From Escherichia phage vB_EcoM_G2285, in the sequence record MK327933.1: a stretch of 64,000 nt of DNA, one strand, 5' to 3'. A program made the translations under genes and the position numbers. Position 1 is the stretch's first letter. Each line of letters opens with the position of its first letter. The notes beneath the pieces are model-generated. The model saw nothing but the letters and a program-made list of their open reading frames with translations. It ran no database searches and was not told the DNA's origin. Positions 22,893 through 43,623 of this stretch are shown in pieces.

Positions 22893-23894
22893 TTATTTCA
22901 GTAAAGTTACTTCAGAGATTTCCTCCCAACCATCTTTGTCAGTTGAAATAAAATCTGCTACATAAAGAGCCGTACGTAATGATACATTGCGAAGACGAGA
23001 TACGTTAGCCTTCATCCAGGACAATGCTTTGTACGTTTCTGCATCAGTCAGACCACGTTTCTGCATCATGTCAGTAGATAATATTACATCTTCAACTCGA
23101 ACCATAATCTCTTCATTAGAGTGTACTCCAAGGTCGAGATACACTGAACGAGATACTAAAGCTTGAAGGTGAGGAGCAAGTTTCGAACCACGTTCTAACT
23201 CTTTATCGATATCAACGTTTGTAATGAAAACGATAGTACCTTCAAACTCAAATTCTTTATCGATACCCTTATCATCAAGATAAGATGATGCAGTGCTCCA
23301 GCAAACTTTGCGTTTATCACCGGTATCTAATGCTGCTTTAAGAAGGTTCAAGATGTCCATATCTGAGAATACGTCAACGTCGTCGATTAAGAGAACGCTG
23401 TCTGCATCACGGTTGAGCCAAAGTTGTTCGTAAAGGCCAATACCAGAGATTTTACCATTAATGCTTTTGTATTTGATGAAACCATTATCATTAGCATTAT
23501 TAAGTGCTTTATCCAGAGAATACGTCTTACCAATACCGGCTGCACCTGAAATAATGAGTGAACGAATTTTGCCATCGATAATGCCATTCGTCATCATGTT
23601 CATTACTTTAAAGCGTTTGTTGATACGAGTTTTCATATCTTCAGTGCTTTCAACAACTGCAACTGGTGATGTCTCAACTCCTTCCATTACGATGTCTGAT
23701 TTGAAGACCCATACTCCACGTTCAGAACCATCAATCATAACGAAAATTTTACCATCACCTAAGTGGGAACATTCAGGATTAAGCTTTGCCGGGAACCAGG
23801 TCTTTGTGGCAACATAAGAACCAGAGATTTCGTTATTACGATAGATACCTTTTTTGATTTGAACATTGAACATTTTATTCTCCAATTTACTCAT
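22893..23894 (-). CDS. P-loop ATPase (AAA-like) with N-terminal extension
   Basis: 333 aa; Walker A ISGAAGIGKTY, Walker B VLLIDDVD. Confidence 0.65.
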   Translation of the reverse strand: MSKLENKMFNVQIKKGIYRNNEISGSYVATKTWFPAKLNPECSHLGDGKIFVMIDGSERGVWVFKSDIVMEGVETSPVAVVESTEDMKTRINKRFKVMNMMTNGIIDGKIRSLIISGAAGIGKTYSLDKALNNANDNGFIKYKSINGKISGIGLYEQLWLNRDADSVLLIDDVDVFSDMDILNLLKAALDTGDKRKVCWSTASSYLDDKGIDKEFEFEGTIVFITNVDIDKELERGSKLAPHLQALVSRSVYLDLGVHSNEEIMVRVEDVILSTDMMQKRGLTDAETYKALSWMKANVSRLRNVSLRTALYVADFISTDKDGWEEISEVTLLK

Positions 23895-23992
23895 TTCGTT
23901 TCGATAGGTCTATAGTATCATATCCTAAAAGCATGTACACTACTTTTTTAAAAATATTTTAACCCCCTAAAGGGACCCGAAGGTCCCCACAT

Positions 23993-24259
23993 TTACTTAT
24001 CGCACTTAGCAACATAATTAGGCATATCACAGAATACGGAGCGAGTAACTACTCGGCCCTTTGACCATGCTTCAGTTGCTTGTCCGGCCGTGCTATTAAT
24101 ATAGCTTGATCTAATGTTCTCAATACCCTGAGAATGTGATGCATTTACCGAACCGTTAGAAGGCCCAGAAGACTGGTTACCACCAGCTCCTGCGCCCGTG
24201 GTAGCACCAACAGAGAATGCCATCATTACTGCGAATAAACCAATTACTAATTTTTTCAT
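23993..24259 (-). CDS. Small secreted glycine/serine-rich protein
   Basis: 88 aa; signal-peptide-like N-terminus MKKLVIGLFAVMMAFSVGA. Confidence 0.5.
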   Translation of the reverse strand: MKKLVIGLFAVMMAFSVGATTGAGAGGNQSSGPSNGSVNASHSQGIENIRSSYINSTAGQATEAWSKGRVVTRSVFCDMPNYVAKCDK

Positions 24260-24286
24260 ATTTACCTCAAGTTAATGGTTATTTAT

Positions 24287-25276
24287 CTATTTATAGTAAG
24301 AATTATGATTTTCGAGATAGACTTGCTCAAGGAAGTCGTCCCAGAAACTCATATCTACTTTTTGTTGCATACCGTTCTTAGCGGCTTGTTCTGACGCATG
24401 TTCAACTTGGTCAACGATATCTTCTAGGAATTCTTGTACAGTTTTAAATGTATGTTTACCAAGCTTAACATCGAGAATAAATGGAGCATCCTGAAGTGGG
24501 TAAACCAGGTCGCCGGTTTTGTAAATTTCCAATAGTTGAAGTCCACCACGACATGCATGACTCAATGCTTTCCAGTCAATACCTTCGTTGGCTTCGGCCT
24601 TACGAGCACGTTCACCATAGTTCTCTTCCAGTTTAACCAGGATGGCATTGAACTCTTTATTGGTTAACGTGTCTTGGAATTTACGGTCTAACAGATTATA
24701 GAATGTTTGCTTACCTGTTTTCTCGTTTTCGGTTTCAACCCACGAAGCAAATTCACCTACAGGCAGAACATTCTTCATATGTGATAAACGAATTACTGCA
24801 CCATTATCAAAGTATTGTCCCCATTCATTAGAACGTTTAAGGGCTTGACGAAGAACAGCCAGTCGAGAACCCTTGACACCGTATTTAGAAGCTTGCTTAC
24901 GGACATACCCTAAATAAGATTTCATGTTAGTGGTATAGAAACGAGACCTGTTATCTTGAATATACTTCCATACATCAGGCAAATCAGATTTAACTACTAG
25001 ACTTGGTGGAGTGTGAAGCATATCTAATGCGACGGTTTCACCATCCGCAGCTAGTTTAAAGAAATATTTGAGACTATACAACTCATGGTCTACGTCGTCT
25101 TTTGTGTTCTTAGAAGATGTGTTATTCGTGTTCTTGCTCATGTGTTCTTTAACGTTACCGGTCAAGATATCACGAGCATGAGGGACATAAATTTCTTTAA
25201 AATCGACATCAGATTCAGGAGTAGACGTTCCATAAAGGTGGCTACCAAAGTAGCTTTTCATAATTGTTTTCATCAT
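24287..25276 (-). CDS. Pol-beta-superfamily nucleotidyltransferase-fold protein
   Basis: 329 aa; N-terminal GSHLYGTSTPESDVDF matches the GS-x(9-13)-DxD nucleotidyltransferase signature; further acidic residues DDVDHE about 40 aa downstream. Confidence 0.5.
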   Translation of the reverse strand: MMKTIMKSYFGSHLYGTSTPESDVDFKEIYVPHARDILTGNVKEHMSKNTNNTSSKNTKDDVDHELYSLKYFFKLAADGETVALDMLHTPPSLVVKSDLPDVWKYIQDNRSRFYTTNMKSYLGYVRKQASKYGVKGSRLAVLRQALKRSNEWGQYFDNGAVIRLSHMKNVLPVGEFASWVETENEKTGKQTFYNLLDRKFQDTLTNKEFNAILVKLEENYGERARKAEANEGIDWKALSHACRGGLQLLEIYKTGDLVYPLQDAPFILDVKLGKHTFKTVQEFLEDIVDQVEHASEQAAKNGMQQKVDMSFWDDFLEQVYLENHNSYYK

Positions 25277-25746
25277 TTAGCCTTATATTCAAGAGTAAGA
25301 CAGACTTTTTCTTTACGAGCTTTAAGGTATTCACCTATTAATGATTTCTTACGTTCAATAGGCTCAAGTCCATTTTTAATTCGTTCTTGGTTTTGCGCAA
25401 TGAGCTCAATTTCTTTATAATATTTTCTGTCGTTATATTTGTCTAACAACCAAGACGGACCAATTACTAACCCGGTAGCAATAAAAGCCATGACTGCTAC
25501 AATTAAAATGCCTACACCAATTGAGGCTGGAACTAATGTCCATAGACTGCTAAAAACAAAGAATTTAGTTAAAATTTCCTGGCCAACGATTGTGACTGCT
25601 GCTAAAATCGCAAATCCAATAATTGAAACAGCCAATACCGGGATTAACGTTTTCCAAAAATAAGCACACAACGTTTTCGGACGATTCCATGTACTATTGA
25701 ACGCGGCATAAATTTTAAAGTGCCAAGAGTTTTCATTGATAATCAT
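25273..25746 (-). CDS. Membrane protein (about 3 TM helices) translationally coupled to the nucleotidyltransferase-fold gene
   Basis: 157 aa; hydrophobic stretches LIPVLAVSIIGFAILAAVTIV and VGILIVAVMAFIATGLVI; ATGA overlap with 24287-25276. Confidence 0.5.
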   Translation of the reverse strand: MIINENSWHFKIYAAFNSTWNRPKTLCAYFWKTLIPVLAVSIIGFAILAAVTIVGQEILTKFFVFSSLWTLVPASIGVGILIVAVMAFIATGLVIGPSWLLDKYNDRKYYKEIELIAQNQERIKNGLEPIERKKSLIGEYLKARKEKVCLTLEYKAK

Positions 25747-25755
25747 AATAATTCC

Positions 25756-26298
25756 TTATTTCAAAGTTGGGATAATAGAATCGAGATAAGCTTTAAGAGC
25801 AACTGCCTCATCTTTGTCTAATGTAATGATATGTTGACGAAGGTCATCAATTTGGCGAATAACTACGACATCACCATCTTCATAAGAAGGATTAACGCCT
25901 AGGACTGTTGTATAGTCAGGGCGGTCCTGATTTGTAATAAAAGCATTACGGCATTTAGCCCATTGAAGTTTGGCCTTTTTGGCTGTTTCAGATTCCATTA
26001 ATTCTTTCACCTTAGTGACGAATGTTTTCCAATTATTAATAGAAAAACATTCATCTTCGGTTTCGATATTAACCCCACTATAAAGTCCGTGATAAAAACG
26101 AACTTGAAGGTCTTCATCAATGTTAATTACAGATGCATGACCGGGTGGATTGAGTTTCAAAATCTTGTCTAGTTCCATAGGAAGAATAGTAGCAGCATCA
26201 TCTTCTTGTGTCAGAACATACACATAACCACGTTTTTCGATACATAAATCACCGAACAACTCGGTTGTTTCAATTACAGTTTTCATATTATTCACCAA
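25756..26298 (-). CDS. Hypothetical protein
   Basis: 180 aa ORF. Confidence 0.55.
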   Translation of the reverse strand: MVNNMKTVIETTELFGDLCIEKRGYVYVLTQEDDAATILPMELDKILKLNPPGHASVINIDEDLQVRFYHGLYSGVNIETEDECFSINNWKTFVTKVKELMESETAKKAKLQWAKCRNAFITNQDRPDYTTVLGVNPSYEDGDVVVIRQIDDLRQHIITLDKDEAVALKAYLDSIIPTLK

Positions 26299-26586: not shown

Positions 26587-26623
26587 TTGTTTTGGTAGGA
26601 CTACTATAACATAATCCTACCAA
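26587..26623 (-). promoter_or_regulatory. Promoter/stem-loop cassette (PeSL-like), copy of the ATAGGACTACTATAACATAGTCCTAT family
   Basis: Minus strand GTTTAC (plus 26618-26623) followed by palindrome GGTAGGACTACTATAACATAATCCTACC. Confidence 0.5.
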
Positions 26624-26631
26624 GTTGTAAA

Positions 26632-41052: not shown

Positions 41053-41124
41053 CTGGCGCACTTGGACTCGAACCAAGATAAAGGAGTTAACAGCTCCCCG
41101 TAATAACCTTTATACGATGCACCA
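41053..41124 (-). tRNA. tRNA-Asn (anticodon GUU), CCA not encoded
   Basis: Hand-folded cloverleaf: acceptor TGGTGCA/TGCGCCA (one G-U), D-loop AAAGGTTA, anticodon stem GGGAG/CTCCT with loop CTGTTAA, T-arm CTTGG-TTCGAGT-CCAAG. Confidence 0.6.
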
Positions 41125-41130
41125 TTTGTT

Positions 41131-41205
41131 TGGTGACCCTGGCTGGTTTCGATCCAGCTACCTATCAGTTATGAGCTGACAGCTCTCCCATTGAGCTACA
41201 GGGCC
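41131..41205 (-). tRNA. tRNA with CAU anticodon (Met, or Ile if C34 is modified), CCA encoded
   Basis: Hand-folded cloverleaf: acceptor GGCCCTG/CAGGGTC, D-stem GCTC/GAGC, anticodon stem GTCAG/CTGAT with loop CTCATAA, T-arm GCTGG-ATCGAAA-CCAGC, 3' ACCA. Confidence 0.6.

Positions 41206-42937: not shown

Positions 42938-43623
<686 letters not shown>

Follow-up and report, generated by a model that had tools for sequence, protein, structure and literature searches.

The nucleotidyltransferase gene of a three-gene locus in Escherichia phage vB_EcoM_G2285 is the RlaP-family nrdC.11 orthologue, accompanied by two variable small genes

The DNA analysed here, a stretch of 64,000 nucleotides from Escherichia phage vB_EcoM_G2285 (record MK327933.1; hereafter the window), is at this locus 98.5% identical to Mosigvirus genomes, including that of E. 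coli O157 typing phage 3, and is classed on sequence grounds as that of an RB69-like phage of the T4 type (Mosigvirus). Three ORFs of its minus strand correspond exactly to those described in the initial annotation: a small inner-membrane protein of 157 aa (25273-25746), a nucleotidyltransferase (NTase) of 329 aa with its NTase domain at about residues 1-140 in the N-terminal part (24287-25276), and a small secreted Gly/Ser-rich protein of 88 aa (23993-24259). The ORF listing also confirms that the TGA of the membrane-protein ORF and the ATG of the NTase ORF overlap as ATGA at 25273-25276, and that the secreted-protein ORF begins 27 nt past the NTase stop. Each of the three is preceded by a Shine-Dalgarno-like sequence (AAGGA, AAGG and GAGG). 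A tblastn search rendered homologues in 1542 phage records for the NTase, 1161 for the membrane protein and 102 for the secreted protein, and the three products match phrog_388 (E=3e-126), phrog_944 (E=5e-51) and phrog_2243 (E=4e-38), respectively. Because of these phage-wide homologues and PHROG matches, the three ORFs are taken to be real genes and not chance ORFs.

Just past the stop codon of the secreted-protein gene lies a terminator-like site on the minus strand, a GC-rich hairpin with a UUCG tetraloop (23971-23988), for which ViennaRNA gives a 7-bp stem and a dG of -12.9 kcal/mol; it is probably a transcript end or a stabiliser. The next conserved downstream gene in the window (22893-23894, minus strand) encodes the 333-aa orthologue of NrdC.10, a predicted AAA-type ATPase that carries the Walker A motif GAAGIGKT, matches phrog_1250 (E=1e-161) and is 77% identical to T4 nrdC.10; its AAA_22/AAA_16 Pfam matches are weak and below the cut-off. 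Among 82 phage loci carrying the NTase, on which all phage neighbourhood counts given here are based, nrdC.10 lies downstream of the NTase gene in 34. Upstream of the membrane-protein gene, a y05I/MobD.1-like protein of 180 aa is encoded on the same strand (25756-26298; Pfam T4_y05I_N, E=5e-40, and T4_y05I_C, E=2e-19), with 45% identity to T4 mobD.1. A candidate sigma-70-type, T4 early-like promoter on the minus strand (26603-26631; TTTACA-17-TATAGT with an upstream TG, 10 of 12 consensus matches) could drive a gene run including the three ORFs, although the evidence for it is weak, because promoter-like sites in the region show no enrichment over shuffles.

The NTase is 78-79% identical over its full length to T4 nrdC.11, and the gene order tk ... 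mobD.1 - [membrane or mobD] - nrdC.11 - nrdC.10 is common to the window phage and T4. In T4, NrdC.11 (NP_049709; COG3541/PF10127) has the same place between mobD.1 and nrdC.10 and belongs to the same length class, the difference being that T4 carries the homing endonuclease gene mobD at the site where the window phage has the membrane-protein gene. From this identity and synteny we identify the 329-aa gene as the Mosigvirus orthologue of T4 nrdC.11, a stand-alone, non-essential early-region gene for a Pol-beta-fold NTase of the RlaP family; it is considered dispensable since the nrdC.11-mobD.3 segment is lost in a genome-reduced T4 (PMC9825161). The view that such a phage NTase is unusual is not supported, since the genome records of over 1500 phages contain nrdC.11 and the prediction that its T4 product is an NTase dates from 2006 (PMC1524935). 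Catalogues of T4-type phage genes have listed nrdC.11 for two decades, and its RlaP membership had also been assigned before.

Assignment to the RlaP family comes from Pfam RlaP (PF10127), which matches residues 4-138 of the NTase with E=6e-13 and 49.4 bits, compared with a cut-off, the gathering score, of 23 bits; all listed homologues of the NTase carry a precomputed PF10127 assignment. Canonical RlaP (RNA-ligase-associated Pol-beta NTase), from Pseudomonas fluorescens and P. aeruginosa, falls in cluster 1a of the PF10127 similarity network, whereas T4 NrdC.11 falls in cluster 5 (PMC12776372). When a profile of the NrdC.11 type was compared with canonical RlaP by hhalign, 85 columns were aligned (probability 94%, E=9e-8) and the C-terminal half of the NrdC.11 type was left unaligned; overall, only the N-terminal ~85-135 residues of the two align, and the C-terminal domain of NrdC.11 is divergent and bears a beta-hairpin insert. 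In PfRlaP, it is the C-terminal half that forms the RNA cleft (PMC12776372). Family membership is accordingly assigned to the N-terminal domain of the NTase. NCBIfam rendered for the NTase only a sub-threshold match to MntA, at the GS motif, the PADLOC defence models matched neither the NTase nor the membrane protein, and searches of PDB sequences with the single NTase protein or with a 61-sequence profile gave nothing meaningful. With the single sequence as query, the homologue search yielded nothing below 98% identity, and a profile query supplied the sequences for modelling.

The N-terminus of the NTase, FGSHLYGTSTPESDVDF, contains G11-S12 followed, after ten residues, by D23-x-D25, and fits the signature GS-x(9-13)-DxD. 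G11, S12, D23, D25, N57 and D63 are invariant, and D85 nearly so, in an alignment of 61 representatives 34-52% identical to the query, and the same pattern recurs in another alignment, of 64 sequences, so that motif loss was found in none of the aligned orthologues. In the hhalign comparison, D63 falls opposite the third Asp, which is invariant in canonical RlaP, and the GS and Asp catalytic residues of both types align; both also combine an NTase domain with a helical one, as judged for NrdC.11 from a confident AF2 model (pLDDT 89.7, pTM 0.76). From the invariant catalytic residues, the NTase is predicted to be an active enzyme. In the model, the C-terminal domain is mostly helical (H206-328), with a terminal helix, and the beta-hairpin insert lies at about residues 177-201. 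The closest PDB folds found with Foldseek are ANT(4')/KNTase, the NTase-like 3c18, HalB, LinB, Tam41 and MNT, and the closest viral folds are phage and giant-virus NTases. The assignment to the Pol-beta superfamily made in the initial annotation is therefore borne out by the Pfam match above cut-off, by the motif invariant in orthologues and by the fold, which matches solved NTases.

Since the top solved structures are ANT(4')/KNTase (E=3e-3), LinB and MNT complexed with HEPN, and the C-terminal domain is unlike that of canonical RlaP, it might be argued that the enzyme nucleotidylates a protein or a small molecule, either AMPylating a host HEPN-type toxin as MNT does or modifying a metabolite or antibiotic in the manner of ANT/KNTase or LinB. 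However, these fold matches are weak (TM 0.2-0.3, 9-10% identity) and stem from an architecture, NTase plus helical domain, that these proteins have in common. ANT(4') (1kny, 6un8), the best of them, likewise joins a Pol-beta NTase domain to a helical one behind it, but with E ~3e-3, TM 0.26-0.32, 9-10% identity and no sequence-profile match it represents another family with another substrate. Sequence profiles place the NTase with RlaP rather than with MNT or ANT, and the characterised RlaP enzymes leave proteins unlabelled (PMC12776372). We consider this possibility unlikely. Relationship to cGAS/DncV-like enzymes (CD-NTases) or to OAS, by which the NTase would make or mimic a nucleotide second messenger against host signalling immunity, has in its favour only the generic GS...DxD motif, common to the whole superfamily. 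Pfam reports only RlaP, PADLOC gives no match, and the Foldseek PDB top 50 contains no structure of cGAS, a CD-NTase or OAS, that is, neither profile nor fold points in that direction; the kinship with these enzymes or with nucleotide signalling that had been proposed is hardly credible for a protein whose subfamily is RlaP.

The membrane protein has two hydrophobic blocks, at about residues 25-65 and 62-102, which yield 2-3 TM segments, in agreement with the approximately three helices noted before. Both its N-terminal and C-terminal tails are basic, and it carries the conserved motifs NSWHxK..SLCxYFWK and KxCPxLEF; it has no family in Pfam, NCBIfam or PADLOC. Its gene is found upstream of the NTase gene, in the same orientation, in 43 of the 82 loci and overlaps it, as ATGA, in 14, while 350-2600 nt of other genes intervene in 29 and no homologue of the membrane protein is found within 4 kb of the NTase in the remaining 39. 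T4 lacks the gene. In ICP1, the gene after the phrog_944 homologue is dNMP-kinase-like instead of an NTase gene, which is why a membrane protein-NTase pairing conserved beyond the T4-like phages was rejected. The membrane-protein gene is thus a frequent but dispensable neighbour of the NTase gene; co-expression may bring some benefit, because several genera, in 14 loci, have retained the ATGA overlap.

The secreted protein shows, as expected from its earlier description, a Sec-type signal peptide, MKKLVIGLFAVMMAFSVGA, and a Gly/Ser/Asn-rich middle, followed by two C-terminal cysteines. Its homologues are confined to 102 phage records, nearly all of them from Escherichia/Shigella phages, and it is present in 3 of the 82 loci. 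Matches to YbgS and JUQZ were weak and far below the cut-off. The length of the nrdC.11-nrdC.10 slot varies from 25 nt to 2.3 kb, and the small ORFs in it, 0-7 in number, are unrelated. Their products do not form one family, being unrelated by BLAST (c107 in the window, c8 in 21 loci, c155 in 3). T4 has a gap of about 100 nt where the window phage carries the secreted-protein gene, which is best regarded as a lineage-specific filler of a variable slot.

A coherent module of three genes, as the locus had been interpreted, is not sustained by this distribution. Only 3 of the 82 loci have all three genes in proximity, 2 of them in the directly adjacent arrangement of the window, and T4 keeps the NTase alone, with neither small gene. 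Unbiased clustering of neighbours in the 82 phage loci revealed no universally linked partner, RNA ligase or kinase, but only the ordinary T4 synteny (rI, rI.-1, tk, nrdC.10), with NadR/NAMPT neighbours in more distant loci without the membrane-protein gene. Both small genes are therefore regarded, from their distribution, as variable bystanders of a conserved nrdC.11. The finding is real but ordinary, because the NTase is a well-conserved, known gene and its small neighbours are variable bystanders; it re-discovers nrdC.11, and so matters little.

The membrane protein and the NTase could also be seen as a two-gene system, either Hailong-like or consisting of a membrane-tethered NTase, that would serve as a phage-borne exclusion device or an anti-defence decoy. 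In Hailong, which consists of an NTase and a transmembrane effector (PMC13434031), the product of the HalB NTase gates the HalA membrane channel; the window likewise has an NTase gene and a membrane-protein gene, which overlap as they do in 14 loci and are arranged on the same strand in 43, and HalB is among the fold matches. But the match to HalB (9dbj) is weak in Foldseek (E ~1e-2, 8-15% identity) and no better than those to ANT(4') or to other minimal NTases, PADLOC recognises no such system, and the obligate co-occurrence of NTase and effector expected of a Hailong-like system is not observed here, given T4 and its relatives, which retain the NTase without the membrane-protein gene, the 39 loci devoid of a nearby homologue, the 29 with intervening genes, and ICP1. 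In addition, the Hailong NTase probably belongs to another family, the membrane protein of the window is profile-unrelated and, at 157 aa, looks too small to form a cytoplasmic crown domain like that of HalA, and the context is a lytic phage instead of a bacterial defence locus. We judge such a system very unlikely. For those lineages with the ATGA overlap (Mosig-, Tequatro-, Dhaka- and Gaprivervirus), the more specific proposal that the two proteins work together as a phage-encoded membrane-coupled NTase system, through recruitment of the NTase to the inner membrane or through a Hailong-like response to its nucleotide or oligonucleotide product, is highly improbable.

The explanation that we favour, with moderate confidence, is that NrdC.11, as a member of the RlaP family, replaces nucleotides that tRNA has lost through nuclease damage, ahead of ligation. 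The anticodon loop of a tRNA would be cut and trimmed by a host enzyme such as the anticodon nuclease RloC; the likely substrate of NrdC.11 would be such a cut and trimmed tRNA, to which it would add the missing nucleotides. From genes elsewhere in its genome the phage would supply the polynucleotide kinase and RNA ligase that could seal the product into a functional tRNA again. On this view the membrane and secreted proteins lie outside the mechanism of the enzyme, as neighbours in a hyperplastic region in which T4-type genomes exchange small genes and homing endonucleases. The analysis establishes which gene this is, its fold, the conservation of its catalytic residues, the family of its N-terminal domain and the absence of a conserved linkage. 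Both the RNA substrate and the counter-defence role are what we infer by extrapolation from RlaP enzymes that resemble NrdC.11 only in the N-terminal domain, at the profile level. PfRlaP and PaRlaP were recently found to add 1-2 NMP to the 3'-OH of RNA while leaving DNA and protein unmodified, and both favour a mimic of cleaved tRNA; for PfRlaP, the 5' half of this mimic was a better substrate than the natural 3' end. The same preprint calls the in vivo role of RlaP unproven (PMC12776372).

That activity is also consistent with other roles at RNA 3' ends, such as repair of damaged tRNA CCA ends or tailing of host or phage transcripts for stability, since the addition of 1-2 NMP to any RNA 3'-OH is generic in the family and rRNA- and tRNA-sized species became labelled in total E. 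coli RNA (PMC12776372). In keeping with this, the phage NTase gene is not encoded beside a ligase, unlike RlaP, or a kinase: RNA ligase or kinase genes adjoin it in none of the 82 phage loci, nor is RtcB or a second RlaP found near it in any of them. [quoted passage not shown] Concerning the restoration of cleaved tRNA, genes for polynucleotide kinase, RNA ligase 1 and RNA ligase 2 are present in the close relative NC_041863, away from the nrdC.11 locus. If NrdC.11 does restore nucleotides trimmed by RloC or comparable anticodon nucleases, T4-type phages would possess a three-enzyme pathway of tRNA restoration (Pnk, Rnl1 and NrdC.11), which would constitute a concrete counter-defence.

In bacteria, loci with relatives of NrdC.11 (33-52% identical) have a canonical RlaP directly downstream in ~24 of 80 cases, and RtcB in ~10 and a Ro60/TROVE protein in ~5 within 6 kb; canonical RlaP, RtcB or Ro60 accompanies the NrdC.11 type in ~29 of the 80. 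Association with RtcB is a feature that these relatives have in common with canonical RlaP. The frequent pairing of the NrdC.11 type with canonical RlaP suggests that their activities are not identical, and the tandem occurrence of both near RtcB or Ro60 may mean that two RlaP subtypes divide the labour.

The 329-aa nucleotidyltransferase (NTase) encoded at 24287-25276 on the minus strand is almost certainly the product of gene nrdC.11, its counterpart in T4. It matches the Pfam family RlaP (PF10127, "RNA repair pathway DNA polymerase beta family"; cut-off 23 bits) with 49.4 bits over residues 4-138, and PHROG 388 "nucleotidyltransferase" with E=3e-126. Homologues were found by tblastn in 1542 phage records, with hosts including Escherichia, Klebsiella, Aeromonas, Acinetobacter and Vibrio, and an exhaustive HMMER scan rendered 3241 clusters (defined at 50% identity) at E <= 1e-3 and 749 at E <= 1e-30, full-length matches predominating among the best-scoring ones listed. 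At the N-terminus (FGSHLYGTSTPESDVDF), G11-S12 is followed, after ten residues, by D23-x-D25. An alignment of 61 representatives, 34-52% identical to the query, showed G11, S12, D23, D25, N57, D63, Y132, R223, K236, R243 and G273 to be invariant and D85 nearly so, and a second set of 64 sequences left this picture unchanged; the motif, whose loss in orthologues the initial annotation had regarded as refuting its assignment, is thus kept in both sets.

A confident AlphaFold2 model (pLDDT 89.7, pTM 0.76), built from the alignment of the second set, predicts an alpha/beta NTase domain, a beta-hairpin insert at ca. 177-201 and a helical C-terminal domain. The best Foldseek matches in the PDB, all weak, were kanamycin NTase/ANT(4'), the NTase-like 3c18, Hailong HalB, LinB, Tam41 and MNT, with no cGAS, CD-NTase or OAS entry among the top 50; among viral models, NTases of phages, jumbo phages and giant viruses matched, and a search of the PADLOC defence models gave no match. 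On these results the fold is that of a Pol-beta NTase; by subfamily the protein is an RlaP, not one of the signalling NTases. The Pfam match, the invariant motif and the predicted fold therefore bear out the Pol-beta assignment made initially, while the accompanying idea of a cGAS/CD-NTase-like signalling enzyme, for which there is no profile or fold match, has a nearly negligible probability. The weak ANT and MNT matches suggest an NTase acting on proteins or small molecules, which we consider quite unlikely.

The name RlaP derives from the linkage to RNA ligases observed by Burroughs and Aravind, as recounted in PMC12776372 and PMC7824862. According to the first of these, a December 2025 preprint, two Pseudomonas RlaPs extend RNA 3'-OH ends by one or two NMPs (or dNMPs), DNA and protein not being substrates; among RNAs they favour the 5' half of a cleaved-tRNA mimic, they work best with Mn2+, can partly restore the aminoacylation of tRNA short of a nucleotide, and consist of NTase and helical domains that form a cleft, T4 NrdC.11 being placed in a separate cluster (5) of the RlaP family network (PMC12776372). 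In our profile-profile comparison, the NrdC.11 type matched the canonical RlaPs of the bacterial and archaeal loci described below with a probability of 94% (E=9e-8) over the N-terminal 85 columns only, D63 aligning with the third aspartate of canonical RlaP. Because the match is limited to those columns, NrdC.11 is, as judged from the profiles, a divergent RlaP subtype, and its C-terminal (substrate) domain cannot be taken as equivalent to that of the characterised enzymes. Among 80 bacterial and archaeal loci encoding relatives 33-52% identical to the NTase (L087-L166), a canonical RlaP (PF10127, 218 bits) lies directly downstream in about 24, RtcB within 6 kb in about 10 and a Ro60/TROVE protein in about five. 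The canonical gene frequently lies in tandem, a few nucleotides downstream, and some loci also encode RtcB and a Ro60/TROVE-vWA protein (e.g. L149:6001-7787, L163:1770-4895 and L110:1558-7746). The adjacency of two RlaP subtypes suggests non-redundant activities.

It is fairly probable that NrdC.11 is an RlaP-type RNA 3'-end NTase, which would restore nucleotides on nuclease-trimmed tRNA, the restored tRNA then being ligated by the phage Pnk/Rnl system. Other roles at RNA ends, such as CCA repair or tailing, are unlikely. No RNA-repair gene adjoins the nrdC.11 homologues of the 82 phage loci surveyed; the close relative NC_041863 encodes RNA ligase 1, polynucleotide kinase and RNA ligase 2 away from nrdC.11. 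Under laboratory conditions the phage can do without nrdC.11: the nrdC.11-mobD.3 segment was lost in a genome-reduced T4 (PMC9825161) and one T4 record keeps just the last 39 codons of nrdC.11. The product was listed in 2006 as a conserved predicted nucleotidyltransferase, COG3541 (PMC1524935), and its placement in the RlaP family is explicit in the 2025 preprint (PMC12776372), so that the finding is real and already known; its remaining value lies in a putative anti-RloC role of the phage enzyme, a directly testable hypothesis. RefSeq phage genomes label the protein "nucleotidyltransferase", "thioredoxin" being a recurrent mis-annotation; "thioredoxin" or "glutaredoxin" labels, found on homologues in many GenBank phage genomes, were probably propagated from the gene name.

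The NTase ORF and its neighbours lie exactly where the initial annotation had placed them, each preceded by a Shine-Dalgarno-like sequence: a 157-aa membrane protein ORF (25273-25746, minus strand), whose TGA overlaps the NTase ATG as ATGA, and an 88-aa secreted protein ORF (23993-24259, minus strand) starting 27 nt past the NTase stop. By hydropathy and direct reading of the sequences, the former product has basic termini and two hydrophobic blocks (ca. 25-65 and 62-102); the latter carries a Sec-type signal peptide, is rich in Gly, Ser and Asn in its middle part and has two cysteines towards the C-terminus. A GGGACC-UUCG-GGUCCC hairpin (dG -12.9 kcal/mol) lies 3' of the secreted protein gene. 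Between it and nrdC.10, a candidate middle promoter resembling those of T4 with a MotA box was noted by eye at 23905-23945 (minus strand; aTGCTTTTAggatatgaTACTATag); in it, a TGCTT-type box precedes a -10-like TACTAT. The region shares 98.5% identity with E. coli O157 typing phage 3 (Mosigvirus, Straboviridae), and similarly with many RB69-like phages, and the surrounding genes, all on the minus strand, follow the T4 order: tk - rI.1 - rI - ... - mobD.1 (y05I-like) - membrane gene - NTase - secreted protein gene - nrdC.10 - nrdC.9 - nrdC.8 ... nrdC.

That these ORFs form a three-gene module, as had been proposed, is not upheld by iterated HMM searches of the 82 phage loci. In 43, the membrane gene precedes the NTase gene on its strand, with the ATGA overlap in 14 of them, where the NTase is always 68-99% identical to that of the window, and with intervening genes spanning 350-2600 nt in 29; no membrane homologue occurs within 4 kb of the NTase in the other 39. 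The secreted protein is present in three loci, a different small ORF replacing its gene even in a Mosigvirus whose NTase is 98% identical, and the nrdC.11-nrdC.10 interval measures between 25 nt and 2.3 kb, with 0-7 small ORFs of unrelated families. In the unrelated Vibrio phage ICP1, the homologue of the membrane gene (phrog_944) overlaps a dNMP-kinase-like downstream gene and not an NTase. Database-wide, the membrane and secreted proteins were found in 1161 and 102 records, respectively, against 1542 for the NTase. The locus thus shows conserved synteny with the local turnover typical of T4 hyperplastic regions, a pattern unlike that of an obligate functional module. These co-occurrence data contradict a true Hailong-like NTase-membrane pair (PMC13434031), which is highly improbable. 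In 21 T4-like loci with NTases 61-66% identical to that of the window (within L009-L041, e.g. L032:9009-9269), a different multi-TM protein of 78-93 aa is encoded just downstream, and three further loci have a third hydrophobic family in this slot; the position recurrently holds small membrane or secreted proteins that lack detectable homology to each other.

T4 differs from the window in carrying the homing-endonuclease gene mobD instead of the membrane gene, and only a gap of ca. 100 nt instead of the secreted protein gene. T4 mobD (HNH; L002:12430-13209) overlaps the nrdC.11 start, in the exact position that the phrog_944 gene holds in the window, as it does in numerous further Tequatro- and Mosigviruses; mobD appears to have displaced the membrane gene in T4. 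The membrane protein matched no family in Pfam, NCBIfam or PADLOC. Conserved in it are the cytoplasmic motifs NSWHxK...SLCxYFWK and KxCPxLEF; the cysteines of the N-terminal SLCxYFWK and the C-terminal KxCPxLEF are nearly invariant in the family, which is also found in ICP1, phiR1-37 and Serratia phage BF.

Elsewhere in the window, a 151-aa ORF (42938-43393, minus strand) with two HxT motifs (HSTI, HITL), following dNMP kinase and 57A-like genes, looks like a T4 gp57B/Acb1-type 2H phosphoesterase (anti-CBASS); the reference genome annotates it as "RNA ligase". Two tRNA genes at 41053-41205 (minus strand) were identified by ARAGORN as tRNA-Asn(GTT) and tRNA-Met(CAT), whereas the pair is annotated as tRNA-Met and tRNA-Arg in a closely related RefSeq genome.
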